From Catajapyx aquilonaris (taxonomy: Eukaryota), in assembly GCA_000934665.2 (NCBI GenBank), contig JYFJ02000329.1, positions 124,001 through 144,956 of the forward strand: 20,956 bases of DNA, read 5' to 3'. Under the pieces are notes generated by a model that was not told the origin of the DNA, did not search any database, and saw only the letters and a list, made by a program, of their open reading frames with translations. Every line of letters starts with the position of its first letter. Within the stretch, counting starts at the first letter, position 1. Below are positions 1,762 through 20,718 of the stretch, piece by piece. A program made the translations under genes and the position numbers.

Positions 1762-2285
1762 TATTTATATTACATCTTTTTTATTTCAGTGCTACTTCGT
1801 GCTGGAGCCATCATTGGCTCCCTTGGGGGGGGGGGGGGTGGATTACCACCATTTTTCTTACGAATTTTCTTTTCAATTTTTCTCTCCGGTGCAGGGATCA
1901 GGATAGGGATTTGTGAGGAGGGTGGAGGGGACACTGGTGCAAGTGCGCTGTCTTAATGTTGGGGGTCGTGTGCAGTCCCCCAGGGGGTCAGGTTGCAAGA
2001 CAACCCCCTAGGTGCGGGTCAGAAACCCCTCACCGACACCGCCCCTCCCCATAATGGATGGGTCAAGGCATAGATTAAGTAAGATCTTCTTAATCTATGG
2101 GTCAAGGATAGGAAAGGAAGGCACGGCTGTGGCCTATTATTTACGGAAGCAACCCCGGCATTTTCCTGGGGGGACCGTGGGAAACCACAGAAAACCACAG
2201 TCAGGATCGCCGGCCCCGGGACTCGAACCCAGGACCTCCCTATTAGCAGTCGAACACCTTATGCACTCTACCAAACTACTTCGGT
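1762..2285 (-). mobile_element. tRNA-derived SINE, copy 2 (longer; 3' boundary approximate)
   Basis: The minus strand reads ACCGAAGTAGTTTGGTAGAGTGCATAAGGTGTTCGACTGCTAATAGGGAGGTCCTGGGTTCGAGTCCCGGGGCCGGC, with a good B box (GGTTCGAGTCC), followed by the same body as copy 1. Homology is clear for 2108-2285. It resumes more weakly at ATCCCTATCCT(G)ATCCC...poly-C-AA(G)GGAGCC (about 1816-1911) and is followed by an A-rich tail. Confidence 0.75.
2061..2107. repeat. 31-bp near-perfect palindrome flanked by an exact 8-bp direct repeat (putative DNA-transposon excision footprint)
   Basis: GGTCAAGG (2061-2068) + CATAGATTAAG-T-AAGATCTT-CTTAATCTATG (2069-2099) + GGTCAAGG (2100-2107). Confidence 0.8.
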
Positions 2286-3030
2286 TTATCAGTAGGCCTA
2301 TATATAATGTCCTAGATATTTTAAAAAAACGATAGATTACTATCCATTCGGATGTAGGTTTCGTACTTCGTAGGAAGAATTAATTTATCATCGTTGATCT
2401 TGGAAGTCGTAGACTATAGTGTAGCCACTGTTAATAATATTTTAGTTTTATCATTTAAATACCTATGTAAATGTAATGTCCGTCTATTTCGCAGCAAATT
2501 CCCATACATATTAGCTAACGAATACACAATACTCAATTAACGTAGTTTAGGTTGTATTTTTGAGTGTTGGTGTCGTGAACACATCTTATTTTGTATTGGG
2601 TAGTTCTAGCAAGAAATATGGCTTTGGAATACAAGTATGTGAGGGACAAATAGTTATTCAAAATGAGACACTCAAAGAAAATTTGATACCACAATAATAT
2701 TATGATTTCAAGTTACATAGCAGGCAGTAATTTTCAATTTCAATCATAAATACCGTTTGTTCGTGTAATGGAATCCATAAGCTATTATTTCTAATGAAAA
2801 AAACACATTTTATCTAGGTTTCGGCGTCAGGAGACAGATAGAGCGGCGGAGATGGACAGAAGTGCATATTAACATTGTTATTTTTAAGTATCTAAGGTGT
2901 TTATTTTAGTTAATCTCGACTGATCTCGATATAAATTTTGAATATGCCTATAGAGTGATGAATTTTACAACGACGTTTCCTTTTCTATACATTACGCATT
3001 CTTTCACATTTCCAGGACCAAGGAGCTACC

Positions 3031-4820
3031 ATGACTTCCGGAGTTTTCGCTTTACCCCTGCCGGTACAAAAATACATAGGAACATCAATGTTGATGTTTC
3101 TCATTGCAAGTTTAGTGCAGGTGGCATTTAACGTTATCGTATGGTCAACGGTCCTTCTACCATTACTCCTCATCTCTCTTCCTGTCTGGGTTACTAGTCG
3201 ATTTTTGGTGTGGTTGAGTTATGGGAATGAACGAAAGCAAGCGACTGGGATAGAAGCTGCTTTCCTACACGAGGAAGATGCGAGCAAGTCCATTGTGAGT
3301 GTGTTCATGGTACTGGCTGGAGAAAATGGACCGGACATGGACAACGATTACAACGAGAGACTAGTCCGTGCCAGAAAGAAATATACCTACCTCGCTTTTT
3401 TGTCATGTCCAGAAATGATTGACAATTATTTCTTCTGGAGAAAGAAGAATGATGTCAATATCAATGACCACTTCCATGTGATGGAAGGCTTAGATCTGAA
3501 GAGGACTTACACTATGAAGGAAGCACTGGATCTGTACGGAGAGGGACAAGCCAACGCGCCCTTTGCGAAGGACAAACCTATGTGGGAAATTCTGTACATT
3601 CCGAAAGTAACACTGGATGAAGGTGATATGGACGAGGCGGATCAAAAGTGCTGCCTCATTCTCAGAGCCCACCACAGCCTATTGGATGGAATATCTTTGG
3701 CCAAATTTATGAATGAGTAGGACTTCACTTTATCCATTAATTTAATACACGTCCAAAAGTTGACTAATATTAATGAACACATTGCATTAGAAGAGCACCA
3801 TATAGTGCCATGTTTCTAAGCACTGATTACAAAATGTTAAACAGAAACTCAATATAATAGTTTTTTCCACTATTTCCATAAACAATGTATTTTGAAAATC
3901 TTCCAGGTTCATGCTTGACAGCGCCATTGATTACAACCCAATTCCGCCTTTACCGCATGTTCCACCATGGCAGATGTTTCTTCTGCAAGCATGCTCCATT
4001 ATCAACATGCCATGGGCCACAACTCCAATGATGCTGAGACGTCTTTGGAATTCCAGTCGCCTTCCTGCCCTGAAAGGACGCAAGATCATCCACACAACAT
4101 CTTTAGACATCGAGGCGGTCCGTTTCATCAAAGATAAAGCAGGATGCTATTTTTCCGAGGTCATCATTGCGTCAGTGGGGGCCTCTTTGCAAGAGTTTTT
4201 TAGTCAGAAAAAATTCAGCCCCAAAGTCATAAGGAGCTTACTGTCGTTGGCATTTCCTTCTGACGACGAGAGTATCATCACAAACAACTTCTCCCTTGTG
4301 ACTATCCCTTTCTCAGGAGAACACATGGATCCTCTTCAGAGGCTCAGGGACACTCAAAAGATGGTGGAGAAAATGAAGCAGTCGTTAGATGTGTTTACTT
4401 TCTACTGGTTTTTGAGGATTTTTGGATACTTGCTGCCTTCGACATTTTTTAGGAGAATGATCCTTTACCTGGATGCCTTCGCAGTAGTGACCTACGTCCC
4501 AGGGAGAGGACCGGTTCTGTATCACAGAGGAAACAAAATTGTTGACTTCAACTTCATTGCGCAACATCGAGATCGGACTGGTGAGTTGAGCTTGATGTAT
4601 TGAGTAATTTATAGTGCCAGATTCTTAAATTAAGCTTTGATCTCTTTCAGGAATAACCATTACAAGTCTAACATATCTACAAAGATTGAAAGTGTCGTTT
4701 TGCGTGGATGAAGGACTGCTAACGGACAAGATAGAAGTAGAAAAGATGGCCAATGCATTTTACAAAAACACTATGGATTTGGCCAACCAGTTAGGATACC
4801 AGAAGTTGGGAAAGCGATAA
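3031..4820 (+). CDS. WS/DGAT-type O-acyltransferase, paralog 1 (509 aa; exons 3031-3716, 3907-4580, 4651-4820)
   Basis: Catalytic motif HHSLLDG preceded by PMW, a hydrophobic N-terminal segment, and C-terminal motifs KAGCYFSEV, TNNFSLV, DPLQRL and TYVPGR. GT-AG introns 3717-3906 (phase 2) and 4581-4650 (phase 1) give a continuous frame to TAA at 4818-4820. Intron positions match the other two paralogs. A splice-acceptor-like TTCCAG ending at 3015 suggests an upstream 5'UTR exon. Confidence 0.9.
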
Positions 4821-5471
4821 ATTACAATACAATCAAGAAGGCCACATTTGTTCCAAGAAAAGCTGCTAGGGTAATAATAAATAATGGTGTCCGTAAGGAC
4901 GGCGACAGTCTGAAGTCCCACTTCCCGCATACCCATTCATTCACCCATAATTATAATATGTTCGTTTTGCAGGTGACGTATTGTCAGACAGCAGGAGTCA
5001 CGAAAGGTCAGCAGCAATGTGACGACATCGGAGAAGATGTTCAACAATTATATGAATGTAAAGGCTGTTATTAAACATCCTCATTCGCACTTTTTTCACT
5101 TTTCATAACTCCCGTTATTTCCTTTCGTAGTTTAAAAATACAGTGCGCACAGTCCTACGAACAGGTGCCTTTTTAATAAAATTCACAAAACAGCGTAGTT
5201 GAAAGTGTTTTCGTTTGAGAAGCCTCTGATAGAACACATTCAAACATGGCGCCAGATCCATAATGATGTGAGTTTATTATTTCACATGAAATACTGATTT
5301 CTTCTGCACGATCAAATGCTTGTTCAATAACGCAATCATGCAATCACCTCCAAAGCATTACACGATTGAAAGGATTGCATGCTCTGATCACTCATATTGA
5401 TCCAATACATACAGAGCGCTGGCGCATTGCGAGACTTGCCGCTATACGTCAGCTGATTGTAACTTCGGACG

Positions 5472-7119
5472 ATGCCACCCGGTGATCCCCGTACCAGTAC
5501 GGTACCCACATTTATTACATCGTCAGTATGGCCATGGATGGTGGCCCGTGCGACTGTGCAGTGCCTTACAAACGTACTCATCTGGCTGGTGGCATTGCTG
5601 CCCACACTGGCCATTTCCCTGCCTTTCTGGGCCTACTCACGATTCGTGGCATGGATTAGCTTCGGAAATACGCGACCTCAGCTCAGGGGTATCGAAACCG
5701 GGTTCCTGTTGGAAGAAGACACCAGCAGGTCGTGTGCGGCGGTCTTTGTGGTTGTCTCCGGTGCTCATGACGTCAGCATGGTGCAGGTGTTGGATTCAAA
5801 GTTCAAGAAGGCTAAACGCGAGTTTCCACAACTACGATTCACGGTGTATCCGGAAGCAGCGGGGAATTACTATTACTGGAAGGAGAAAGAGGACTGGGAT
5901 TTTTATGATCACTGGCACTTGCTCGACGGGATTGATCCGGATGTGACCTACTCCAATTCTCGAGTGATGGAAATATGGGGAGAGAAGAGAGCCAATTCTC
6001 AGTTCCAGGCTGGGAAACCGATGTGGGATTTGTATTTCGTGCCCAAGTTTCGGTTTGACGAGGACAACGACACTGTAGACAAGAGTTGCTACATTTTGAG
6101 CTTCCATCATAGTTTGTGGGACGGCATTTCCATGGGAAAATTTTTGAATAGGTATGTCATGTACTTTATAAAAACTGTCAGTGAAGTATCAATATATTGT
6201 CGTTTCAGATGCCTGAACGATACACCAGTCAGCTATAATCCCATCTTAAAACCGGAACCGCTACCAGCATGGACCAGACTCTTTTTGAACGCAGCTTCCA
6301 TCTTCAATCTTCCTTGGATCAGCATTCCTATGATGACTAGAAGACTGTGGAATGACAAGTACCTCCGTCCCCTAACCGGTCGCAAGATCGTTTGCAGTTG
6401 CAAACCCTTGGACATCAACACTGTACGGTTTATCAAGAGAAAGGCTGGTTGCTTATTCTCTGAAGTCATCATAGCGTCAGTGGCAGGGGCGTTGCAAGAA
6501 TTAAATCAAAAGGCAGGATACGGCAAAAATGGTGACATCCGCAGCGTGATATCAGTGGCTTTTCCCTCCGAAGAGGACAATATCAGTGGCAACAACTTTT
6601 CATTAGTGACAATGATATTATCTGGACAGAAACTTGGTCCGATCCAGCGCATTCGAGACACACAAAGCGCAGTGCAAAGAGTGAGAGAGTCGACGGATAT
6701 GTTCACATTTTACTGGTTCTTGAAAATATTTGGGTTTTTGGTACCGGACTTCTTGTTTCGCCATATGGTGACCAAAGTAGACGCATTTGCAGTCATTAGC
6801 TACGTGCCTGGACGTGGAGAACAATACTGGATTGGCGGTAGGCAAGTCACAGACATACACTTCACTGCTCAGAATCGCGATAAAACAGGTTGGTGGTTAT
6901 TCTGCAACATTTATTTGTAGTACGTTGTCGTCTTATTTATTTTATCTACTTTCAGGGGTGACCGTGACGGCTACCAGCCTCATAGACAAAGTGAGAATTA
7001 ATTTCCAAGTCGACGAAGCTCTGGTTGGTCGGAGTGACTTGCTATCAACAGTGATGGATATTGTTAACGCTACAATACTAGAACTAGCCGCAGAGTTTGG
7101 TATATACAACAACAATTAA
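5472..7119 (+). CDS. WS/DGAT-type O-acyltransferase, paralog 2 (507 aa; exons 5472-6151, 6209-6888, 6956-7119)
   Basis: Motifs HHSLWDG, PMW, KAGCLFSEV, SGNNFSLV and SYVPGR. Introns 6152-6208 (57 nt) and 6889-6955 (67 nt) sit at the same positions and phases as in paralogs 1 and 3. The last exon (GVTVTATSLIDKVRINFQVDE...) is homologous to theirs. Confidence 0.9.
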
Positions 7120-7756
7120 AGTAAAACGTCTTAGAACCTCACACACTCTTAAATGGCTAACTTGTAAGTGAATAATTTCTAGGAAAGTGAATCATCGTGT
7201 TGAAATATTTCTACTGTTCATACTTGCATTTTTACGACTTCCAGCAGATATAACATTTTCATGTTTGTCTTTCGGGTGACACTGATGGTTGTGAACTGAA
7301 ACTTGGCCTTATCTAGAGCAATGAAAAATAAAGAATTGAACATTGCAAAATTTTATTTGATTCAATTATCTCGATTTGTGGAATGTCCACTGGTGTGAGG
7401 TATTTTAGCACGGACAACCGAGGATGTCGTTTTAATATCACAACAACATTGTGTGATACTGAACCTACACCAAATATTATTTGTACTGTAATAATGCCTC
7501 TCATGCGTGCAACAGCTGCTCCATTTCACACTAATTAGCTGCCTGCTGCCTTCCCTTTCTGACTGTCATTGTGGTTACTAAGGCCTGATTCGGTAGCATT
7601 ATTTTCAGGATTATTTGTTTGATTCAGCAAACAATATGGACTGTTGCTAACATCCACCGTCAACTTGGCATTGTCTGAAAGTTATGTTTTGATGAGGGTA
7701 GCTCTGCCTGAGCTGAGAAATTTTAATCGATTTTAGAAGAAACGTGTAAGTGCAGC

Positions 7757-9806
7757 ATGGACACCGCTGACCAACATTTTCTGTGTCTTGAGTACTCCAT
7801 CACAAAATGGGAGGTAATTCCATTAATATATCAATCTTTGGTTATGATCCATTAGGTTTCGACTTCTCTGAACGTATAGCCTCACCACTTCTTCCCTTAT
7901 ATTGTTTAATACTAATTGCTGTCCACTATGAATCAATTTATTAAGAACGAGGGAAGACCCAGACTGAGGAATACTTTCAGGGAGTGTTTTCAAGGATTCA
8001 ATACTGATAACATGTCATGGGGACATGGGGTAACAATGGGGTAGTTTATACAACACCAAGGAAACTGGACTCAAGTCACTATTTGGTTTCTGTTATAACA
8101 CATCATATTGCCAAATAGATTACTATTCATCTGGTTTTACGTCAGTTCTCTTGACGAATGAATAGGGAATGAATCAGAACCGGGTCCATTTTTCTCACTG
8201 CACCTGTACTGCTTATATACATGTGATGATATTTTCATTTGGGTATTTGTCAAATGTCCTTCAATTGGTTTTTTTATGTGTCCAGGATCACAAGTCCACA
8301 ATGTTCTCGGCTTTCCGGGTATGGACCTCAGGCAAAAAGCGCGACCTCGACCTTTGCAGGAGAACTCTGACCACGTTCAATACTTCTAACAGCTACTGCC
8401 TCGCCTTAATAACCGTTCTCCACAAGATCCTTGCGAACCTTGCAAACAAGATTCCTTCTTACTACACGATCATCGGTATGCTCGGATCGGAAAGAGAAAT
8501 GGCCGATCACAACATGCCTAGAACTCCTGCGCCACAGGTATGAAAGGGTTACTAAAGGATCTTACTGGGCACTGGCATTACCAGAATATTGTTGAGGGCT
8601 ATTGCTGCCATTGCGAAGTCAATTTCCACGCCTCTACCAAGTTGTCTTTTCCTGATGAGTATCAAATTCGAACAAATCATCCGCCATTAATTTTTGGACT
8701 GAATAAGCGTAAAACCCCTCTTGTTTTCACCCCATTCCCATTGATGCTGCGAAGGTGTCAAATTACAGGCCTGTTGTTAACGGTGTCAACCGACGAGTAA
8801 TACCGCCACTGCATTCTGTATATGTGCAGGATCTCGACGAATTTATCGACGAGCCGGACGAACCGATGATCAAGGTGCACGCAGGTCTCCAGGAACTTCT
8901 GTCCAACATGATGACGCTGAGCGAGAAGGTGCACTTCGTGATGACCACCCTTCACAACACCCTGTCCGAGGCTAAGGAAGGATACGAAAGGGACCTGAAG
9001 AAGCGCATCAAGGAAAGGCTGGAAGTTCAGCTGGAGCGATGCTCGAAAGACGTGGGGAACCGGAGGAAAGACGAGTACGCCAAGGAACACATGGACATAT
9101 ACATGCGTCGATGGCAAAAGCAGATAGAGGACGACTGGAACGTGGTATGCATACATGTCGAGTAAGGTTCTGCTAGTGTTAGTGACCCTGGTTATATGGT
9201 GTCCTGGCAGGAGCTGGACCTGCGCATGACCACGGTCAGGACTATGACCGAAGAGCAGTGGAACCAGGCCGTGGACCAGATCCTGTCCGGCAAGACAACG
9301 AGCATCCCGGAGCGGATCCTCCTGACCAACAAAGCCTCAGGTCTGGCCATTCTGCAAAGGCAGGAGAGGGTGGCCTGGCTGACCAGGGGTCGGATCTGGG
9401 CCGGGTACGACGACTTCCAGGTCAGGTACGAGCAAAGGATGTCCAGGGAGCTCAGGAAGGTAGAGAGGGCGATCAGGAGCTTCGCAGTCGCTTACGAGAA
9501 GGGATGCAGGGTGCCCGTGGGCCTGAAGATGACCCCGGAGCTGGAACATGTGAGAATGAGCTTCGTGACATTGGAGCATTCACATGGTGACGAGCGACAG
9601 TCGTCACCATGATTTTATTCCAATAACTTGTTGGTTACGACACTACCCTAATATTTCATCGCAAATTGTAGGTTTTGTGTGACTTGGCCGCGGCTGAAGA
9701 AGAGGACGAGCATGTGGAGGAGACGTCTCTCTGGCCTGCTGAGGAGCAGAACCAACAGCAGGATAATGGTGAGGTGGAAACCATGGAAGTGTCATCAGAA
9801 GAGTAA
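7757..9806 (+). CDS. Uncharacterised 365-aa protein, probably helical/coiled-coil with an acidic C-terminus (exons 7757-7813, 8286-8537, 8830-9144, 9211-9549, 9672-9806)
   Basis: Four GT-AG introns, all phase 0 (GAG|GTAATT...TCCAG|GAT, CAG|GTATGA...TGCAG|GAT, GTG|GTATGC...GGCAG|GAG, CAT|GTGAGA...TGTAG|GTT), join a stop-free frame MDTADQHFLCLEYSITKWE-DHKSTMFSAF...PAPQ-DLDEFIDE...DWNV-ELDLRM...ELEH-VLCDLAAAEEED...SSEE*. Exons 3-4 show strong GC3 codon bias that starts and stops at the predicted splice sites. Exons 1-2 are less certain. Confidence 0.7.
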
Positions 9807-11461
9807 AAAGAGCAGGATGAAAACCTCGACGAACAACTCATGCGTCATCCACGTTGCTGGCTACAAAAGGAGATTTACGAACTCAGAGGGCAGACGCCCT
9901 AAAATTATTGAGTGTCTGAGAATAAGCCACGTAAATTATTACCAATTAATTAAAATTTTGGCATATACAATACATTTTAAGTGATTTAGTTGGACCACAC
10001 TGCACTATCTATACAGTAGTGATGTGCAAAATAATCCGAATTGTAAAAACATTTTTCAGGACATCACAACATGTTGCAAAGCCAAAGCCAGTGGACTTAT
10101 GCAAATTATTTTGTTGCGTACTATACATACCCTCCGGTCCCAGGTCCGAGACAAATACTGTATATGCTCTTACTCAAGTAAACAGATACCGGTACCAACG
10201 AAAATGGAAATATGGCTGTGAAACCAGATTTTGACAGCTGAGGATATACCTGATCATGCAGCGTTGGCTGGGCTTTGGTTCAGGTTCAATTTCCGGTAGG
10301 CCTACACATTATTATTTAATTCTACCGTACAGTACAAGAGTAATCTGCACATACTGCAGCTTAGCCTAACACATATCATGATAATATATTTTTAGTCGCC
10401 TTCGCACTATAGGTCCCTGTTTACTTGACACTGAATAAGTTGAGGAATAGAGCCTAAATTTCATGACACTACGTCTGGAGTCTTTCTAATTATAATTATT
10501 AGGGCCTATACCCTCTGTGGAATATATCTTTACCTAATATACAATATATAGTAGTCATAGAAATCCTGTAATGTCGGACCGCCCACCTGGCTTTTCATTA
10601 TAATTAATAATTAATTTCGCGTTGTATACTTCTTATACATTAAATATTTGAAATAATACTAATAGTGTCATCTATAATTTTGGACTGCTGGGTCATTTGC
10701 GGATCATGATTGTAATTCAGAGGTTCAAAAAATCTGCAATTATACAAAACAAAGTTATACAAAACAATAATGAGTGCACGCGTTTTTAAGCACCACCCAC
10801 TCTAATTGTTGTGGAGTAAAAAGGTAAGCCATATCTTCACATCCTACAATTCCCACGACATGCGAGATCAAATGAAACACGGCACTCACTGTTTAGAAAA
10901 GAACTGTTTGGATGTCATCGAACCCCTGTGAACAGTAGTGGGAATCATTATTACTCAATGTGTACAGTATATACTGTGTACTACCTCCCAACCCTGACCA
11001 TACTCAAACCATTTCCCATCGAAAGTTCTTGGCTCCATTGCCAATTATGGCAAGGAAATATGCGCAAAGGAGACTGGTCTTCTTCACCATTATACAGGGT
11101 CAATCCGTAATTACAAACATTTTTTGGGCAATGCTTCACGTCCAAATGAAATATGTTACGGTGACTTGTCTACACCTGACATGGATAGTGGACTTCATAT
11201 GTATACTGCACATTCATAAAGTATACTGTAGGCCTACTATACATAGTATAGTTATTAGTAGTGCAAGTCCACTTATACTATGATCTGATTTTCAGTGAAA
11301 GTGGTGTTTTCCAGACATCATTTCATAAGTTGAAACAATCCGAATAAGTACTGTTCAGGTAGGACAATATTATTGTCACAGTATTGCACGTTCCAAAACC
11401 CTTATACCATTGCCATCATCATAATAAAGCAAAAAAAAAAGGAACACATACCACGGAGGTT

Positions 11462-13329
11462 ATGGTTACTGGAGCAAATCGTAATGATCGAGCACCAGCA
11501 ACGATATCACACCGCAGTGGGAACAGAACACTCGCTCCGAAAGCAATGTTAAGTGATACCATGCTGTGGTGCTTATTCTGGGTGGCAATAGTGATACTCA
11601 ACCTGTTAGGATGGGTCGTGGTGCTGGCTCCTGCTCTCCTGATCTTCTTACCATTTTGGGGCATCTGTCGCTTGCGAGTTTGGATCAGGTATGGCAAACA
11701 TAGGAGACAGTTCACAGGCATCGAATCTGCGTTCATACACGAGGAAGAAACGAGCAGGTCAACTGTGGCTGTGTTCTCGGTGCTGACGGGTGAGCATGAC
11801 CCGGATGTGGTGCATCGCTATGACCGAAAGTTGATGGTGGCCAAGAAGGAGTATCCGGATCTTGCTTTTCTGTCATGCCCGGAAAGGATCCACAGCTATT
11901 ACTACTGGAAAGAGAAACAGGAATTCAAGTTCGCGGATCACTGGATTTTGCTCGATGGTGTGAATCCGGATAGGCTGTACTCAGAGACCGAGATTTTTGA
12001 ACTGTATGGCGATCGGACTCATAACTCACCTTTTCCGGATGGGTTGCCAATGTGGCAGGTGTATTATGTGCCTAGGTTTGTGTTTGATCACGAGGTTGGG
12101 AAGCCGGATGCGGTGGAAAAAAGTTGCTACATCCTGAGGGCCCATCACAGCATTTGCGATGGGATATCTATGGGAAAGTTTATGAACAGGTAAGCACAAT
12201 TTTGGAATGGTCAGTCACAATTAACTGATTATGATAGAGTTTAAATATCTTGTAACATCCCTTGCAATTTTTTTTTCTGGGAGGCCATGACTTTTCTAGC
12301 AGAAACCGACATGGTTGGTTGGCTGTAACTTTTTCTTGGCCACTTTTGCACGATTCACTTTTTCAAACAAAAATAATGAGCTCAGCAGCTGAAAAACGCA
12401 CTTTTTTGTTGTTCCATTTTCAGATTTATGTTGGATAATACATTTGACTACAACCCGATTCCACCTCTGCCGTACATTCCGCCGTGGAAGATGTTTCTTC
12501 TCCATGCAGCAGCCATCTACAACATCCCATGGGTCACATCCCCGATGCTTTTCAGACGACTGTGGAACTGGACTCGTCTTCCTCCGCTCAACGGACGGAA
12601 GATAATCTGCACCTTGTCAGTGGACATCGAAATGGTTCGTTTCATTAAGAGAAAGGCCGGTTGTTACTTCTCAGAGGTGATCGTGTCGTCGGTTGGGGCC
12701 ACTCTGCAAGATTTCTTCAGCAAGCAAGCATTTTGTCCCGGTGTCATCAGAAGTGTCCTGACCCTAGCCTTTCCCTCCAACGACGACGCCATAATCACCA
12801 ACAACTTTGCCCTCGTCACCATCCCGTTCTCTGGTAAGAATCTGGATCCTCTTCAGCGCTTGAGGGACACGCAGAAAATGGTCCAGAAGATGAAGAAGTC
12901 CATCGACGTCCTCAGCTTCTACTGGTTCTTGAAAATCATGGGCTATCTGTTGCCATCTGCCGTTTATGGGAGGATGATTCGCTTCCTGGACGCCTTTGCC
13001 GTGGTCAGTTACGTTCCTGGTCGAGGTCCGGTTCTTTACCATCAAGGAAGAGCGGTTGCCGATGGACACTTCATCGCGCAGCATCGAGATAGGACTGGTT
13101 AGTGAAAGGAATTTGTTGCGTCTGACTTCGTCATTATTATTGTCTCCTTTCAGGGATCACAATAACGGCGATCACTTATCTCAATGTCATCAGGATCAAC
13201 TTTTTGGTGGATGGAGGACTTGTGAAAGGAAGGGAAGATGTGCAAAGGATGGCAGACGTTTTTCAGGAGAAGACACTGCAGCTGGCCAAAATGTTGGGGT
13301 ACGACGAAGAGAAGGACAAAAAAGTATAG
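11462..13329 (+). CDS. WS/DGAT-type O-acyltransferase, paralog 3 (about 525 aa; exons 11462-12189, 12424-13097, 13154-13329; start codon uncertain)
   Basis: Motifs HHSICDG, PMW, KAGCYFSEV, TNNFALV, DPLQRL and SYVPGR. Introns 12190-12423 and 13098-13153 are at the conserved positions, and the stop TAG is at 13327-13329. The first in-frame ATG is 11462, but later ATGs (MLSDTMLW) are possible starts. Confidence 0.88.
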
Positions 13330-13963
13330 AACCTGCCTTCATATGGTTTGACGCACTTCTCATGTGCCTGCAATGAGGCTTCAAGTAGTCCTATGCAACG
13401 AATATATATTAGTTAGCAGTGTCTATTTGAATATTGCATTAGACATAATTATTATGCTGCTATTTTTTGTAGCTTTTGGCACTTGCTCAGTTGCTTCCGA
13501 TATTGTATAATATGCGATTCTTCGGGTTGCTTATCAGTCAGTATTTCACGCATGGCAATGACTAAGTTGATAATGCACATTTGGTAAAGCTTAATTCATA
13601 TTCACGGCAAAACTACACTGGAAGATTTTATTAGACTTTTACAAATTAGTAGTTTACACATTAACCATTTTAGTGTGCTTTTACAATATAGGCTAGGGTA
13701 TCATCACCAACATAATAAATTACAAAATGTGTTGCACGCCTCTATCAATAGCAAATAAATATGAATTAAATTTTCCCTGTCTGATGTCCTACAGAAGAGT
13801 AAAATAGTTAGTCCATCCAGTATTCTTTGAAGCTTAAGGCAATATAACTCCCTAATTGCGGCACATGAACAAGTAAAATTTGTTGAGCGCCTTAGCATCG
13901 ATTTTAAAAACAACTGCTAGATTAGGCATGCGGTACTCTTCAGTCTGTAGTATATAGTGCATC

Positions 13964-14045
13964 CTGACCTATGTTTGTATCATTAGTCAGGACTAATGAT
14001 ACAAACAGAGGTCAGACTGTATCAGCAGGACTGCTGGTACAGTCT
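13964..14045. repeat. Two abutting inverted repeats (25-bp arms and 15-bp arms, each with a 2-nt loop and 1 mismatch)
   Basis: CTGACCTATGTTTGTATCATTAGTC-AG-GACTAATGATACAAACAGAGGTCAG (13964-14015) and AGACTGTATCAGCAG-GA-CTGCTGGTACAGTCT (14014-14045). Confidence 0.9.
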
Positions 14046-14486
14046 TAACTATATAAACAACGTCTAGGCATAGAAAATGATTACGCCTAAGGCCTAACTC
14101 CATGTACGATTTTTGTAACGCCCCTGCTTATTGACTTGTATATCTTGCAAATAAAATACGTAGACTACTATGCGGGGTAATATCAAGACAATGGAGAGCA
14201 ATCAACTGGTATTAGTCTAAATTATATCAAAACTGAGAAGATTAATATCTATCACACAGATTGTAAAACCTCTCGAACAACACATCACTAAGCTTTTTGC
14301 TGAAAAAAATATTGCACCCATTGCATTACGGCAGACCATGCAAATCACCTGTTTTCTGCAATGCCTCAAATATCCTATGACTCCAGGTATATCTTATGCA
14401 GCGGTCTTTCAGATGCGTACGAATATGAACTCCATTAGAGTCCATTCCAACGATTCGGTATAGGCATTGTAAGCATGATTAGAGAT

Positions 14487-14647
14487 ATTACATCATTTTG
14501 CCCTTGACCAAGCCCTTGAGCGCTCAGCCAACTTGACAAGATAGCAGGAACTAAAATCAGGGCACAGTACAGCTGGCTTGCGAGTAGACCTCAGGACATA
14601 TAATATTTCCTACAGCGCGGTACCTAATTCAGTAGGTGTGACTCAAA
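14487..14647 (+). promoter_or_regulatory. Upstream block conserved between the two P450 paralogs (putative proximal promoter/5'UTR), copy A
   Basis: ATTACATCATTTTGCCCTTGACCAAGCCCTTG...CCAACTTGACAAGATAGC...AGTACAGCTGGCT aligns with 18027-18163. Similarity stops upstream of this point. Confidence 0.55.
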
Positions 14648-17022
14648 ATGTTGTGGGTTATCGTGTACGGCTTTGTTGCGGCGGTGGTCGGGATCATCTC
14701 TCTGGTTGCAACGTTGGTGATTTGGAACATTAAGAGATGGGAAAGTGCAGGATTTGATGCAATACCCCCTTCAGTCACCTGGAAAAGCTACTTGAGACAA
14801 TTCCTGGTAACGAAATGCAATGGCGACGCAGATCTGGATATGTACAATTACTTAGTGCGTGCCGGTGCCAAGTGCGGAGGAGCAGTCGAAATGATGGGTT
14901 CCAATTTGTGGATTGTGGATCCGGACATGATGAGAAGCGTCTACGTCAAGAATTTCGATCACTTTGTGGACAGACCGGTATTTGAAATGGGAGGACAGGG
15001 CAGTTACATTAACCAGGCATTATCAAACCTTGTTGGGCAGCAGTGGAAGGACGTGAGGAACGTAATGTCTCCGACATTCACCTCTGGGAAAATCAAGCTG
15101 ATTTTCCAGTCCATGCCCAAATGCTGCCAGAAGCTGACAGATTTCTTCGAAAAAAAAGCTGAAACAGGAGAATCTGTGGATATGAAGGATGCCTTTGGGA
15201 GACTGGTGATGGACGTGGTGGCGATCACTTCCTTTGGGATCGACTGCGACTCCTTCAAAGATCCGGATGCGCCCTTTCCAAGGATGGCTAATAAGATGTT
15301 TAATCCAGGTGTCCTCAGATTCCTAGTCTCTATGGGCGTTATTGCTGCTCCGCGTTTTGTGAATTTCCTGCGTATGCTGCGTGTCCCTTTACCTGACTCG
15401 GACGATGTCGACCATTACTTTGCATCCGTGGTCAAAGATGCGATTGAACATCGCGAAAAGAGTGGGGTGAAAGGAAGGGACTTTCTGCAGTTGCTGATGG
15501 ACGCCAGGAAAGGAGAGTTGGACGATCTTGAGTCGGACAATTTAATCGGATACAACCCAAGTTCTGACCAGATCGACACAGAAAAACGCAAGGCCCTCTC
15601 CAAAGCAGGTATGCATATGTCACATTTTGTTATTATGTTAACATTCACTGAAGCAGATGCGGTGTAATTCCTTTTTGCAGTGCTGACGGAGCCTCTTCTG
15701 ATAGCTCAATGCGTATTACTTCTCATCGCTGGTTACGACACGACAGCTAATACATTGTCATTTGCTGCCTACGAGATGGCTGTCAACCCAGACATCCAGG
15801 AGAAATTGTATAAGGAGGTGAAGAAGGCAGCAGACAAACACGATGGGAAATTGACTTATGATGACGTCATGAGCATGGAGCTCTTGGACAAAATTATCCA
15901 TGGTGAGACACAGGCTTAATTATTTTTGCTTAACTATTAGTATTGTTAGTGTAGTAGTAGCCTAGTAGTAGTACAGTAGTAGCCTAGTAAATGTATTATA
16001 CGTGCAATGTGATTACGTTGTCATATTAATTTATACGTAAGTTCTCCATAATTTGAACATTTTTTTCGTTAACGTTTACAATATCTTTGAAAGGAAAATG
16101 CTTGCTACCTAAGAGTATTCCTAAACAGTGCTGTAGAACGCATGCCATTTCGTATTATTGGTAAATTGGAAGGAGGCAGTAATATTTTATTTTTGCTGGT
16201 GGCCTCTTATTACTGACGTGTGCCGTTAGAAATTATTGCTTTCAAATTATGCATGTCGGGTTGACCGAGAAGGCTATTGTTGCAGCAGATAAACTGCGTT
16301 TTATCTTAAGCACTGACACAAGCCAGTCTCATCCTGTCTGTAAATCTCACATTTTGCAGCCATTAAAAGCACACCATATCATTACACGAGGTATTTCGTA
16401 ATGTTTACCTGATATTTTTGCACTCGGGCTATACTCCTAGACCTCAGCAGGCATGAGCCTCACTAAATATTAACGCTTGCTAAGAAATTGTTCTAAAATT
16501 ATTTCAGAAACACTACGTCTTCACACTATTGCAACTAGAGTTGCCAGGGCCTGCACCAAAGATTTGCAGGTGCCCGGGACAAATGTTACCATTAAAAAGG
16601 GGACGACAGTGATGTTTCCTGCTTTCGCTGTACATCGCGACGAGCGTTATTTCCCCAATCCGACGAAGTTTGATCCTGAGAGATTCAGCTCTGAAGAGAA
16701 GGGAAAAAGGTCCCCATACGTTTATCAACCTTTTGGACATGGACCTAGAAATTGCATAGGTATGACAAGATTGCCATTATTATCTGTGTGCCAGAGTACC
16801 TATTACTCACAATCAGTGCAGGTTCTCTAATGCTGGTCCTTGTTTCCCTGAACAGGAATGCGTTTCGCACTGATGGAAGTCAAAACAATATTGGCTTACA
16901 CGATCCTCAACTTCCGTCTTCATCCTACAAAAAAGACAACAATTCCGATGAAATATGCCTTAATTGCCATTCTGCTAAGGGCCAGAGAGGGAGTGTGGCT
17001 GAGGCTTGAAAAAAGAAAATGA
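14648..17022 (+). CDS. Cytochrome P450, CYP3 clan (CYP6/CYP9-like), paralog A (533 aa; exons 14648-15608, 15681-15902, 16508-16759, 16856-17022)
   Basis: N-terminal membrane anchor, KNFDHFVDR, WKDVR...SPTFTSGKIK (C-helix region typical of the CYP3 clan), I-helix AGYDTT, ETLR, FDPERF and heme motif FGHGPRNCIG-MRFA. Three phase-1 GT-AG introns give an intact frame to TGA at 17020-17022. Confidence 0.95.
15947..15990. repeat. Imperfect (GTA)n microsatellite in P450-A intron 2
   Basis: GTAGTAGTAGCCTAGTAGTAGTACAGTAGTAGCCTAGTAA, with two TAGCCTA interruptions. Confidence 0.7.
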
Positions 17023-18026
17023 CTTGAACGATAAAATCAGTTATAAAAGTTCTTGGCAAATAGGATTCTTTGCACAAAATGTTTAAAATCAACCATTTTA
17101 AAATGGTCGTTCACAATTATGTTTGCTTCATATATAGGTACCGGTACTTCACAGTATCTCATTTCAATGAATTACCGCATAGAAATTATTGCATGTATTC
17201 CTCTTCAAAATGATACTATATGCAAGGAGGTTTAAATGGTGCGATTAAATCTTCAGTGTAGGCGTAATTTCCAAAACTAACCAATAAATTATATAAAATG
17301 ACTGCAAGGACATAGTCACCAAGACGTGGAAATACAGCGTGCAGAGTTAGTCAATTCCCATTTATGAACTGGACTATACACTCATAACTCCTCGACCATG
17401 CCATTTTTTTCATAACAGCTTTGTTGGTGAGACGAAGAATATTAAGCACTGGAAATAAAACATTAGACTGATTAGTGAACTGATGTTATATTACACTATG
17501 CATGAAAATTGCGTCAATTTATCACAAAACGTACAATGTGCCCTTTCCGTTAAGTTTTTTTTGTTGTCATAACGGTGCATAGCACTATTAGTGCAATATT
17601 TTCGGCCTTCTATCAATCTAGAAAGTACTAAGTTAATATCCTAACAATTGCCATGGCGCAGTATCATATTCTCCATTATCACATTATGTTCCAGATTTTA
17701 CCGTACTGGAAAGTGTCACAAGAGGATGGAGATAATATTTTTAGTGCTCTTCACACAGCCAAACGGTTGTAGTGCACCTCACGTCTTGCGCTCAACAATG
17801 ATGCCATTATGTCTAGAAGTATGTAGACTCTTTGTCTTCTCAGAGTGACGGCACAACAGATGAAGAGTAAATTAGGACCTGTGAAGCATTGCATAAGGTC
17901 ACGTGGGCTGTGCAGACCTTGGGTAACGTCACCCTTTTAATTTCCAGATGCCTATCAGCTCTATACCTACAGGTACAGTACGTTCCATCGACTGCGGAGT
18001 CATTGTGTACGTAATGTTTGTATACC

Positions 18027-18163
18027 ATTACATCATTTTGTCCTTGACCAAGTCCTTGTCAGCTCCTCCAACTTCACCAGATAGCCGAAACTAAAGGCAG
18101 AGTACAGCTGGCTCGGGAGCAGAACATCTTGCTACAGCAGTGCAATAATAGAAGTTAAGCAAA
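18027..18163 (+). promoter_or_regulatory. Upstream block conserved between the two P450 paralogs, copy B
   Basis: ATTACATCATTTTGTCCTTGACCAAGTCCTTG...CCAACTTCACCAGATAGC...AGTACAGCTGGCT aligns with 14487-14647. Confidence 0.55.
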
Positions 18164-20690
18164 ATGTTGTGGGTTATCGGGTACCTCTTTGTGGCGGCAG
18201 TGCTCGGGATCATCTTTCTGTTTACAGCGGTGGTAATCTGGAACACTCAGGGATGGAAAAGTGCAGGATTTCCCGTAACACCCCCTTCTTTCCTCGTGAA
18301 AATTTACCTGAAACAATTCCTGGTAACGAAATCCAACTGGGATGCAGATCTGGATATTTACAATTACTTTGTGAGTACCGGTGCCAAGTGCGGAGGAGCC
18401 GTCGAAATGATGGGTTCCAATTTGTGGATTGTGGATCCGGACATGATGAGAAGCATCTACATTAAGGATTTCGATCACTTTGTGGACAGACCTGTATTTG
18501 AAATAGGCGGAAAGGAAAATTACATTAACCAGGCATTATCCAACCTTCTTGGGCAGCAGTGGAAGGACGTGAGGAACGTAATGTCTCCGACATTCACCTC
18601 TGGAAAAATCAAACTGATTTTCCAGTCTATGCCCAAATGCTGCCAGAAGCTGACAGATTTCTTTGAGAAAAGGGCTGAAATGAGAGAATCTGTGGATATG
18701 AAGGATGCCTTTGGGAGGATTGTCATGGACGTGGTGGCGGTTTCTTCCTTTGGGATCGAATGCGACTCCTTCAAACATCCGGATGCGCCTTTTCCACGGA
18801 TGGCTAATAAGATGCTGAATCCAGGTCTCCTCGGATTCGCACTACAAATGGCTTCCTTTACTGCGCCCCGTTTTGTGAACTTATTGCGTATGCTGCGTGT
18901 CCCTTTACCTGAATCAAACGAGGTCAACGACTACTTTGCATCAGTGGTAAAAGATGCGATTGAACATCGCGAAAAAAGTGGGGTCAAAGGAAGGGACTTT
19001 CTGCAGTTATTGATGGACGCCAGGAAAGGAGAGTTGGACGATCTTGAGTCGGACAATCTAATCGGGTACAATCCCAGTTCCGAGCAGGTCGCTGCAGAAA
19101 AACGCAAGGCCCTTTCCAAAGCAGGTATAATTATTATATAAACGTACAAATAATTATTATATTATTGTATTAAATTATTGTATATACTCGTACATTAGTA
19201 AGTTACATATCAACTTATTGTTATACTGTCTTTTATACTATATTATAATATCTATTCATTATATTACTATCTATTGTACTATCTTTTCATGCGCTGTAGC
19301 AGATGCCGCGTAATTTCTTTTTGCAGTGTTGACAGAGCATCTTCTGATAGCTCAATGCATATTACTTTTGGTCGCTGGTTATGAAACGACAGCTAACACA
19401 TTGTCATTTGCTGCCTACGAGATGGCTCTCAACCCGGACATCCAGGAGAAGTTGCATGAGGAGGTGAAGGAAGCAGCGGACAAACACGATGGCCAATTGA
19501 CATATGATGACGTTATGAACATGGAGCTATTGGACAAAATTATCAATGGTGAGACACAGGTTTAAGCGTAAGAATAATTGGTAGGTCTATTATTATTAAT
19601 GATACATTTGACTTCAGGTATAACAGCCTTTAAGGGATCGATGAAATCAGTGCCCTGTAACCGAGATATCTTTTTCCAAATCGCCACTTTCGCAACGAAG
19701 TTTTCTCCCTGCCATTTGCTATAATGCATCCTTTTGCACTACTGCAACCAAGTAATACAACTACCGATGTGAAACAAGGTTCAAAATGTGCGAGGATTTA
19801 TGGGAATTGAGCATATAGGCCTAATATAATATGGATAAGTGCTCCATGATTTCAACGATTTTCGTAAGAGGTTGCAATGTTTTCCTAGCGATATTGTTAC
19901 CAGAGCTCTCCTAAACAATGCTGCAGAACGTACGTATGTTGCATTTGTTGTCAATTGTAATGGTACATAATGTTATTTGATGCTGGAACATTGTTACTGA
20001 CTCATGATGGTACGGTCGGTAGTAATTATTACTGATTACGGTAGTGTCAGATAGACCTACAAAGCTGTAGCCTATGAACGATTCTTTCACTTTCTGTCAC
20101 AAGTCAGTCTGATCCTTTCTGTCAACGTGAGTGGCAAGAGGTTCCGCAAATACTTATAACTCCTGATAAGAGACTCTCTTATTTCAGAAACACTACGTCT
20201 ACACAATCCTGCAACGAAGGTCGGCAGGACCTGCACCAAAGATTATCAGGTTCCCGGGACAAATGCCACCATTAAAAAGGGGATGACAGTGATGTTTCCT
20301 GCTTTCGCTATACATCGCGACGAGCGTTATTTCCCCAATCCGATGAAGTTTGATCCTGAGAGATTCAGCTCTGAAGAGAAGGCAAAGAGGTCCCCATACG
20401 TTTATCAACCTTTTGGACATGGACCTAGAAATTGCATAGGTATGACAATAATTCCATTATAGTTTATGTGCCAGCATATCTATAGTGAGTGTGGGTTGCT
20501 AATGGTAGTATTGCTTTCCTGAACAGGAATGCGTTTTGCCTTGATGCAAGCCAAAACAATCCTGGCTTACACCATCCTCAACTTCCGCCTTAATCCTACA
20601 GAGAAGACAACGATTCCAATAAAATACGCCTTATCTTTTGCGCTAAAGGCTAAAGGGGGGATATGGCTGCGACTTGAAAAGAGAAAATGA
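18164..20690 (+). CDS. Cytochrome P450, CYP3 clan, paralog B (532 aa; exons 18164-19124, 19327-19548, 20188-20439, 20527-20690)
   Basis: Exon sizes 961/222/252/164 nt versus 961/222/252/167 nt in paralog A. Motifs WKDVR, AGYETT, ETLR, FDPERF and FGHGPRNCIG-MRFA are intact. Stop TGA at 20688-20690. Confidence 0.95.
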
Positions 20691-20718
20691 TTGGAGCCGT
20701 GGTACCAGTTATAGTCTA

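Follow-up and report, generated by a model that had tools for sequence, protein, structure and literature searches.

We analyzed a 20,956-nucleotide stretch of the genome of Catajapyx aquilonaris (assembly GCA_000934665.2, contig JYFJ02000329.1, positions 124,001 to 144,956 of the forward strand), referred to here in its whole length as the window. Between positions 3031 and 20690 (17,660 nt), its plus strand carries six apparently intact spliced genes, head to tail and all in the same orientation: three genes of the WS/DGAT acyltransferase type and two cytochrome P450 genes, with an orphan gene among them, in the order WSD1, WSD2, orphan, WSD3, CYPa and CYPb. All six models were predicted from sequence by combining stop-to-stop open reading frames (ORFs) on the plus strand with junction sequences; every intron is of the GT..AG type and no model contains an internal stop, in agreement with an initial annotation of the window that described six intact, co-oriented genes in less than 18 kb. 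That annotation proposed a lipid-modification cluster, in which the P450s hydroxylate a lipid that the acyltransferases then esterify, and named the chance adjacency of two tandem arrays as its own alternative. Our results support this alternative better than the proposal itself. We consider it probable that the locus represents two independent tandem arrays that abut by chance, the first of them interrupted by an unrelated orphan gene, and that their adjacency presumably carries no pathway meaning.

The first evidence for this conclusion is the age of the two arrays. The WSD proteins are 44–55% identical in pairwise comparisons, and their synonymous differences are saturated (proportion of synonymous differences, pS, 0.77–0.79), whereas CYPa and CYPb are 82% identical at the protein level, with a synonymous divergence (dS) of 0.31 and a ratio of nonsynonymous to synonymous divergence (dN/dS) of 0.30, and can still be aligned through introns and about 160 nt of upstream sequence. 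Therefore, the arrays arose at very different times and not together. Second, the WSD array is split by the orphan, an unrelated gene with different codon usage. Third, a comparison of the 400 nt before each start codon revealed no clear motif common to the WSD and CYP families. One 8-mer, AATGATGT, was common to upstream regions of both families (shuffled sequences gave a mean of 0.03 per set and a maximum of 1). However, we gave it no weight, because CYPa and CYPb, whose promoters are homologous, account for two of its four occurrences, and this homology was not modelled by the shuffles. The fourth evidence comes from the gene neighborhoods of distant WS/DGAT relatives, which are described below. 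Overall, the pathway link gained no support from these four indirect tests (age, continuity, upstream sequence and distant relatives), none of which was able to refute it. Thus, the proposal of a lipid-modification cluster stands with respect to the enzyme families, their membrane anchors, their duplication and their common orientation, but the step from hydroxylation to esterification that would join them found no backing.

To compare gene neighborhoods, we searched metagenome sequences. A scan with the three exon-2 sequences of the window WSDs returned 190 pattern stretches, none of which encoded a relative. A second scan, for which the query was a group of homologs approximately 25% identical to the window WSDs, yielded eight loci; two of these look bacterial (GC 0.755), and three others are eukaryote-like and have flanks of 5 kb or more. 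P450 neighbors were sought in the eukaryote-like loci by tblastn with CYPa and CYPb and by Pfam searches of their 56 ORFs. An intact P450 neighbor was found in none of the three contigs, and an apparently broken one that is not orthologous to the window CYPs was found in a single contig, L005. There, the P450 sequence (1831–3256, minus strand) lies head to head with the WS/DGAT homolog (5163–6338, plus strand), and their apparent starts are about 1.9 kb apart if a putative N-terminal ORF (2999–3256) is included; counted from the last P450 exon that was confirmed, the distance is about 2.8 kb. The best solved relatives of this P450 are CYP3A4 structures. In its last third it contains an in-frame TAG (2229–2231) and a frameshift near 2103–2133, and in the P450 tree described below it falls outside the CYPa/CYPb group on a branch of 2.6 substitutions per site. 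These features make a pseudogene or an assembly error the probable explanation. The L005 case is mildly suggestive of linkage, because the P450 is the only recognizable neighbor gene in about 25 kb of flanking sequence, but it does not amount to conserved linkage.

Three further observations were made on these contigs. Reassignment of the stop codon was considered for the TAG in L005 and rejected, as the neighboring WSD frame in L005 and those in L001 and L002 contain no stops when read with the standard code. The WS/DGAT homologs in L001 (641–2242) and L002 (6267–8111), both eukaryote-like with a GC content of 0.36–0.37, are single uninterrupted ORFs, in contrast to the window WSDs with their two shared introns. 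The loci L002–L006 share a metagenome prefix, which implies at least five WS/DGAT paralogs or variants in that sample.

The WSD genes are predicted to consist of three exons each on the plus strand: WSD1 at 3031–3716, 3907–4580 and 4651–4820 (509 amino acids (aa), motif AHHSLLDG), WSD2 at 5472–6151, 6209–6888 and 6956–7119 (507 aa, motif FHHSLWDG), and WSD3 at 11462–12189, 12424–13097 and 13154–13329 (motif AHHSICDG). The start of WSD3 is ambiguous, with ATG codons at 11462, from which the protein would have 525 aa, and at 11546. Both intron positions and phases are common to the three genes: intron 1 follows immediately after the HHxxxDG region in phase 2, and intron 2 is in phase 1. The Pfam family WS_DGAT_C (PF06974) was significant in WSD1, WSD2 and WSD3, with scores of 40.6, 36.9 and 41.3 bits against a cut-off of 20.7 and E-values of 3.3e-10, 4.7e-09 and 2.1e-10, respectively. 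The second family, WS_DGAT_cat (PF03007), gave a weak match in exon 1 of WSD1 only (E 0.0032, 17.7 bits against a gathering cut-off of 23.6) and no match at E up to 0.01 in WSD2 and WSD3. All 20 of the top library matches carry at least one of the two families. The catalytic HHxxxDG motif is kept in all three WSDs at the end of exon 1, where it aligns with HHAMVDG of AtfA.

As a single sequence, WSD2 had no match among PDB sequences at E up to 1. However, a profile built from the three WSDs together with the library proteins closest to them (alignment A2, 19 rows) matched AtfA of A. baylyi (7nxg) at E 5e-23, with positions 123–428 of the profile aligned to 65–393 of the chain and both domains covered, and matched the Marinobacter WS/DGAT enzyme (6chj) at E 1.6e-19. 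We also obtained an AlphaFold2 model of the WSD2 reading frame (window 5472–6920), which contains 19 intron-encoded residues and leaves out the last exon; its mean predicted local distance difference test (pLDDT) score of 67.9 indicates moderate quality. In a Foldseek search with this model, ranks 1–3 were 6chj_B, 6chj_A and 7nxg (E 2e-10 to 3e-9, TM scores 0.47–0.59), followed by condensation domains of nonribosomal peptide synthetases. The model thus suggests that WSD2 adopts a two-lobed fold of the condensation/CAT type, for which the nearest solved structures are WS/DGAT enzymes. Because of the WS_DGAT_C matches, the HHxxxDG motif, the profile matches to AtfA and 6chj and the Foldseek matches of the WSD2 model, membership of the three WSDs in the WS/DGAT family is secure. 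The window proteins share with these two bacterial enzymes a PxW-type motif, and their C-terminal (S/T)YVPGRGP stretch lines up with SNVPGP of AtfA. In contrast to the bacterial enzymes, they add an N-terminal hydrophobic hairpin of approximately 40–50 residues and are encoded by three-exon animal genes.

An N-terminal hydrophobic anchor is present in all five enzymes of the locus. Using a Kyte-Doolittle average of at least 1.6 over 19 residues as the criterion, we located hydrophobic segments within the first 63 residues of WSD1, the first 55 of WSD2 and the equivalent position of WSD3; WSD2 has an additional segment at residues 89–107. In CYPa and CYPb, the segment comprises residues 1–30. 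Among WS/DGAT relatives, such a segment precedes HHxxxDG in 50 of the 69 motif-bearing members of the clade that holds the animal proteins, as against 7 of 51 in the other clade. This split indicates that the membrane anchor is a feature of the animal-type branch.

To place the WSDs among their relatives, we carried out a HMMER pass over 1.84 billion representative proteins, which gave 337 matches at E up to 0.001. A single one of these, a 166-aa fragment with 41% identity, was below 1e-30. Among the matches listed, the others of at least 300 aa are at most 31% identical over the matched stretches, and those aligned as a single stretch over most of the query are at most 27% identical. Word-indexed homolog searches with WSD2 exon 1, a query ill-sized for full-length relatives, and with the 482-aa WSD2 frame returned no matches. 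When 30 matches were looked up by cluster, 10 carried organism names, all of them animals: nine pancrustaceans (springtails, shrimp, krill, crayfish, mantis shrimp and an ostracod) and one annelid. They include Orchesella cincta (a protein annotated ‘O-acyltransferase WSD1’), Orchesella dallaii, Allacma fusca, Penaeus monodon (‘tgs1’), Procambarus clarkii, Meganyctiphanes norvegica, Oratosquilla oratoria, Darwinula stevensoni and Owenia fusiformis. Overall, the matches are those of a protostome-type invertebrate whose close relatives are absent from the protein libraries.

A FastTree tree was built from the three window WSDs and 143 matches of at least 300 aa; seven shorter matches, including the fragment with 41% identity, were dropped. 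The window trio forms a clade of its own on a long stem (1.22 substitutions per site), with WSD1 and WSD3 as sisters, and adjoins a group containing two springtail proteins. The annotated invertebrate WS/DGAT homologs belong to the same family and to the same large clade of the tree, but they are 17–27% identical to the window proteins, which stand apart on their long stem. The window WSDs are therefore best described as a very divergent, membrane-anchored clade of the animal type. Our searches of the open-access literature turned up no functional study of an animal WS/DGAT protein.

The two P450 genes have four predicted exons each on the plus strand: CYPa at 14648–15608, 15681–15902, 16508–16759 and 16856–17022 (533 aa), and CYPb, its tandem duplicate, at 18164–19124, 19327–19548, 20188–20439 and 20527–20690 (532 aa). 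The Pfam p450 family matched all eight exon ORFs at E up to 0.01 (best 2e-34), and seven of the eight reached its gathering score, the last exon of CYPb falling below it with 21.1 against 22.8 bits. The characteristic motifs are intact in both proteins: AGYDTT/AGYETT (I-helix), ETLRL, PERF and FGHGPRNCIG. In a comparison of CYP exon 1 with the PDB, all 14 matches at E up to 1e-5 were CYP3A4, CYP3A5 or CYP3A7, the best at about 1e-25, and every family-named protein among 36 library matches carries the name CYP6 or CYP9, with 25–37% identity; the named relatives come from insects and springtails. For exon 1, identity did not exceed 34% in any match. We built a P450 tree from the C-terminal 215 residues of 17 of these 36 matches (those of at least 440 aa), CYPa, CYPb and the L005 sequence, without an outgroup from the CYP2, CYP4 or mitochondrial clans. 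In this tree, CYPa and CYPb group with thrips proteins named ‘CYP9e2’, with a Shimodaira-Hasegawa-like approximate likelihood ratio (SH-aLRT) support of 88. Like the CYP3-clan enzymes in general (vertebrate CYP3A4, arthropod CYP6 and CYP9), they share the microsomal anchor and the AGxxTT, ExxR, PERF and FxxGxRxCxG motifs. By sequence, CYPa and CYPb are CYP3-clan, CYP9-like P450s.

At the nucleotide level, the duplication comprises three blocks that are 83–88% identical (14487–15612 and 18027–19128, 15631–15919 and 19277–19565, 16499–17045 and 20179–20713). Upstream of the two starts, at 14487–14647 and 18027–18163, approximately 140–160 nt are still 85% identical; this alignable stretch is probably a shared core promoter or 5′ untranslated region that was carried along by the duplication. 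We regard the pair as an ordinary young CYP3-clan duplication, and the WSD genes as the more unusual part of the locus. Taken together, these results bear out the family calls of the initial annotation, WS/DGAT with HHxxxDG and CYP3 clan, through Pfam, motifs, PDB matches and the profile and Foldseek matches. The N-terminal anchors that it noted in both families reappear as Kyte-Doolittle segments in all five enzymes, and the local duplication of each family is evident in the three WSD paralogs and the CYPa/CYPb pair.

The old three-gene array encodes very divergent membrane-anchored O-acyltransferases of the WS/DGAT type. If they work as AtfA/WSD1 does, HHxxxDG would provide, with its second His, the general base for the acceptor hydroxyl, and the activated hydroxyl would attack the thioester of a fatty acyl-CoA to yield a neutral ester (a wax ester, triacylglycerol or other lipid ester), presumably at the endoplasmic reticulum (ER) or lipid-droplet membrane. 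It is probable that the paralogs now differ in the acceptors or acyl groups that they prefer. The young two-gene array encodes CYP3-clan (CYP9-like) monooxygenases, presumably microsomal, which hold their heme-thiolate center at the Cys of FGHGPRNCIG and would receive electrons from P450 reductase. Members of the CYP3-clan/CYP9 clade usually oxidize xenobiotics and lipophilic small molecules and commonly expand by tandem duplication. For WSDs and CYPs alike, we infer this catalytic chemistry from the families to which they are assigned.

Several points weigh against an adjacency by chance. The arrangement is compact and fully co-oriented, and the WSDs and CYPs are both predicted to be ER-membrane enzymes, so that they could meet the same lipophilic substrates. 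By analogy, their chemistry would be complementary, a P450 making the hydroxyl that a WS/DGAT enzyme needs. In L005, the one neighbor gene that can be recognized beside a distant WSD homolog is likewise a P450 sequence resembling CYP3A4, a pairing that would be uncommon by chance if P450s account for about 1% of genes or fewer (our own estimate, not derived from this genome). Furthermore, different duplication ages are compatible with a later functional recruitment. The first alternative is that the locus is a true animal metabolic gene cluster in which CYPa and CYPb oxygenate a lipophile (a long-chain lipid, terpenoid, sterol or carotenoid) and the WSDs esterify the new hydroxyl to give a storage, cuticular, pigment or defensive ester. 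In its favor, five genes of two adjacent, complementary and non-homologous families, each duplicated and membrane-anchored, lie on one strand within 17.7 kb, which is the arrangement expected of a gene cluster, and L005 provides a second, independent WSD/P450 adjacency. However, the duplication ages of the arrays are far apart, the orphan breaks the WSD array, no clear common upstream motif was detected, the P450 in L005 appears defective and is no ortholog of CYPa and CYPb, and an intact P450 neighbor is present in none of the three informative contigs. In addition, few genes of arthropod-like genomes are as numerous, or as widely scattered in tandem groups, as those of the CYP3 clan, and such adjacencies are therefore to be expected now and then when many windows are scanned. 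On balance, we consider a metabolic cluster unlikely.

There is an animal precedent for such a cluster. At the oroidin (oro) locus of sponges, a gene ‘bundle’ reportedly combines an acyltransferase with two CYPs, interspersed with unrelated genes (PMC12833800). Like the window, this locus brings P450 and acyltransferase genes near each other in an animal genome, which favors the cluster alternative, and it makes the pairing of oxidase and acyltransferase, which the initial annotation had called rarely described in animals, rare rather than unknown (PMC12833800). However, the sponge genes are described as syntenic in all six producing species and as supported by biochemistry, and their acyltransferase belongs to a different family (PMC12833800), whereas the genes of the window are predicted from sequence.

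A specific variant of the cluster alternative involves carotenoids. According to the portions of the literature at hand, CYP3-clan P450s are carotenoid ketolases in spider mites, where CYP384A1 is one such enzyme, and candidates for this role in shrimp (PMC12135272, bioRxiv 10.64898/2026.05.13.724795, PMC10608541), and this lends the cluster alternative some plausibility. By analogy with the mite CYP384A1, the window CYPs might turn a dietary carotenoid into a hydroxy- or keto-carotenoid that the WSDs would then esterify with fatty acyl-CoA. We consider this variant highly improbable. In the literature on astaxanthin esters and acyltransferases in crustaceans and in the ketolase papers, the titles, abstract openings and passages covered named no animal enzyme that esterifies astaxanthin.

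The orphan gene is relevant to a second alternative, that some of the six models are non-functional. Four exons are predicted for it on the plus strand (8301–8537, 8830–9144, 9211–9549 and 9672–9806), encoding an acidic protein of 341 aa with a net charge of −13 and an acidic tail. The 5′ exon and start are uncertain, with further in-frame ATG codons at 8169 and 8226. Against Pfam at E up to 5, the only match was one of chance level to nSTAND3 (E 0.043); against the PDB, nothing was found below E 0.58, and exons 2 and 3 gave no usable match in the Atlas. These Pfam, PDB and Atlas searches also revealed no link of the orphan to lipid metabolism. A single-sequence AlphaFold2 model of exon 3 had a pLDDT of 44 and was unusable. 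The GC content at third codon positions (GC3) of the orphan is 0.74 (0.62, 0.76, 0.86 and 0.58 by exon), compared with 0.51–0.58 in the enzyme genes (0.42–0.63 per exon) and a GC content of 0.37 in the surrounding non-coding sequence. The high GC3 of exons 2 and 3 (8830–9549) possibly reflects high expression, biased gene conversion or foreign origin. Because the GC3 of these exons (0.76–0.86) contrasts with a non-coding GC of 0.37 and the splice sites are good, the sequence argues for a real gene on the plus strand.

If some of the models were unexpressed or decaying copies, or if the orphan were a mis-predicted ORF, the ‘cluster’ would be smaller than it appears. This alternative draws on the facts that all six genes are known here from sequence, that the orphan has no homolog in any search and an uncertain 5′ exon, and that the start of WSD3 is ambiguous. 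On the other hand, despite the saturated synonymous divergence of the WSDs, the reading frames of the five enzymes have stayed open, their canonical splice sites occupy conserved positions and phases, and no catalytic motif has been lost; the dN/dS of 0.30 between CYPa and CYPb likewise speaks for functional genes, and the GC3 of exons 2 and 3 marks the orphan strongly as coding. We therefore find it quite unlikely that the locus is reduced in this way.

A third alternative, very unlikely in our judgment, is a co-regulated detoxification island, in which P450s would carry out phase-I oxidation of lipophiles from the diet or of xenobiotic origin and WSDs would conjugate the alcohols with fatty acids, so as to inactivate or sequester them, under shared inducible control but without a dedicated biosynthetic pathway: the CYPs are CYP9-like, from a detoxification-type clade, recently duplicated and under moderate constraint (dN/dS 0.30), and fatty-acyl conjugation detoxifies ingested ecdysteroids in moths, but the available passages on that system assign the ecdysteroid 22-O-acylation to an MBOAT-type sterol O-acyltransferase, not to a WS/DGAT enzyme (PMC7296158), no regulatory motif common to both families was found upstream, and the WSD paralogs are old and conserved, unlike fast-turnover detoxification blooms. 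Ecdysteroid acylation was also considered separately as a role for the WSDs and is disfavored because of the MBOAT-type enzyme that performs it in the moth, as described in the same passages (PMC7296158).

The intergenic gaps between the six genes are, in order, 651, 1181, 1655, 1318 and 1141 nt. An AATAAA or ATTAAA follows the stop codon of every gene at a distance of 56–385 nt, such as the AATAAA at 4876 after WSD1. With a poly(A) signal behind every one of them, the six genes are apparently transcribed as separate units. The other ORFs of the window that are 55 aa or longer, 50 in number on the two strands, yielded no further Pfam domains; therefore, the six genes are the full recognizable content of the interval. 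Scans of the window with Rfam and for tRNAs (ARAGORN) gave no matches. Upstream of the six genes, at 662–851 and 2105–2285, a short interspersed repeat is present as two inverted copies with 83% identity across 190 nt, in which ARAGORN and Rfam recognize neither a tRNA nor any known RNA family. The sequence contains one N, at position 933, outside the gene interval.

The significance of the locus depends in part on which reading is correct. If the adjacency were functional, the locus would be among very few gene clusters of oxidases and acyltransferases in animals, and it would provide the first assigned role for the animal WS/DGAT branch. If the carotenoid variant were true, it would name an animal enzyme that esterifies a xanthophyll (astaxanthin) or a similar lipid. 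The practical value at present lies in the WSD genes themselves: three intact, divergent, membrane-anchored animal WS/DGAT genes, which are candidates for the synthases of wax esters, pigment esters and other lipid esters in invertebrates.

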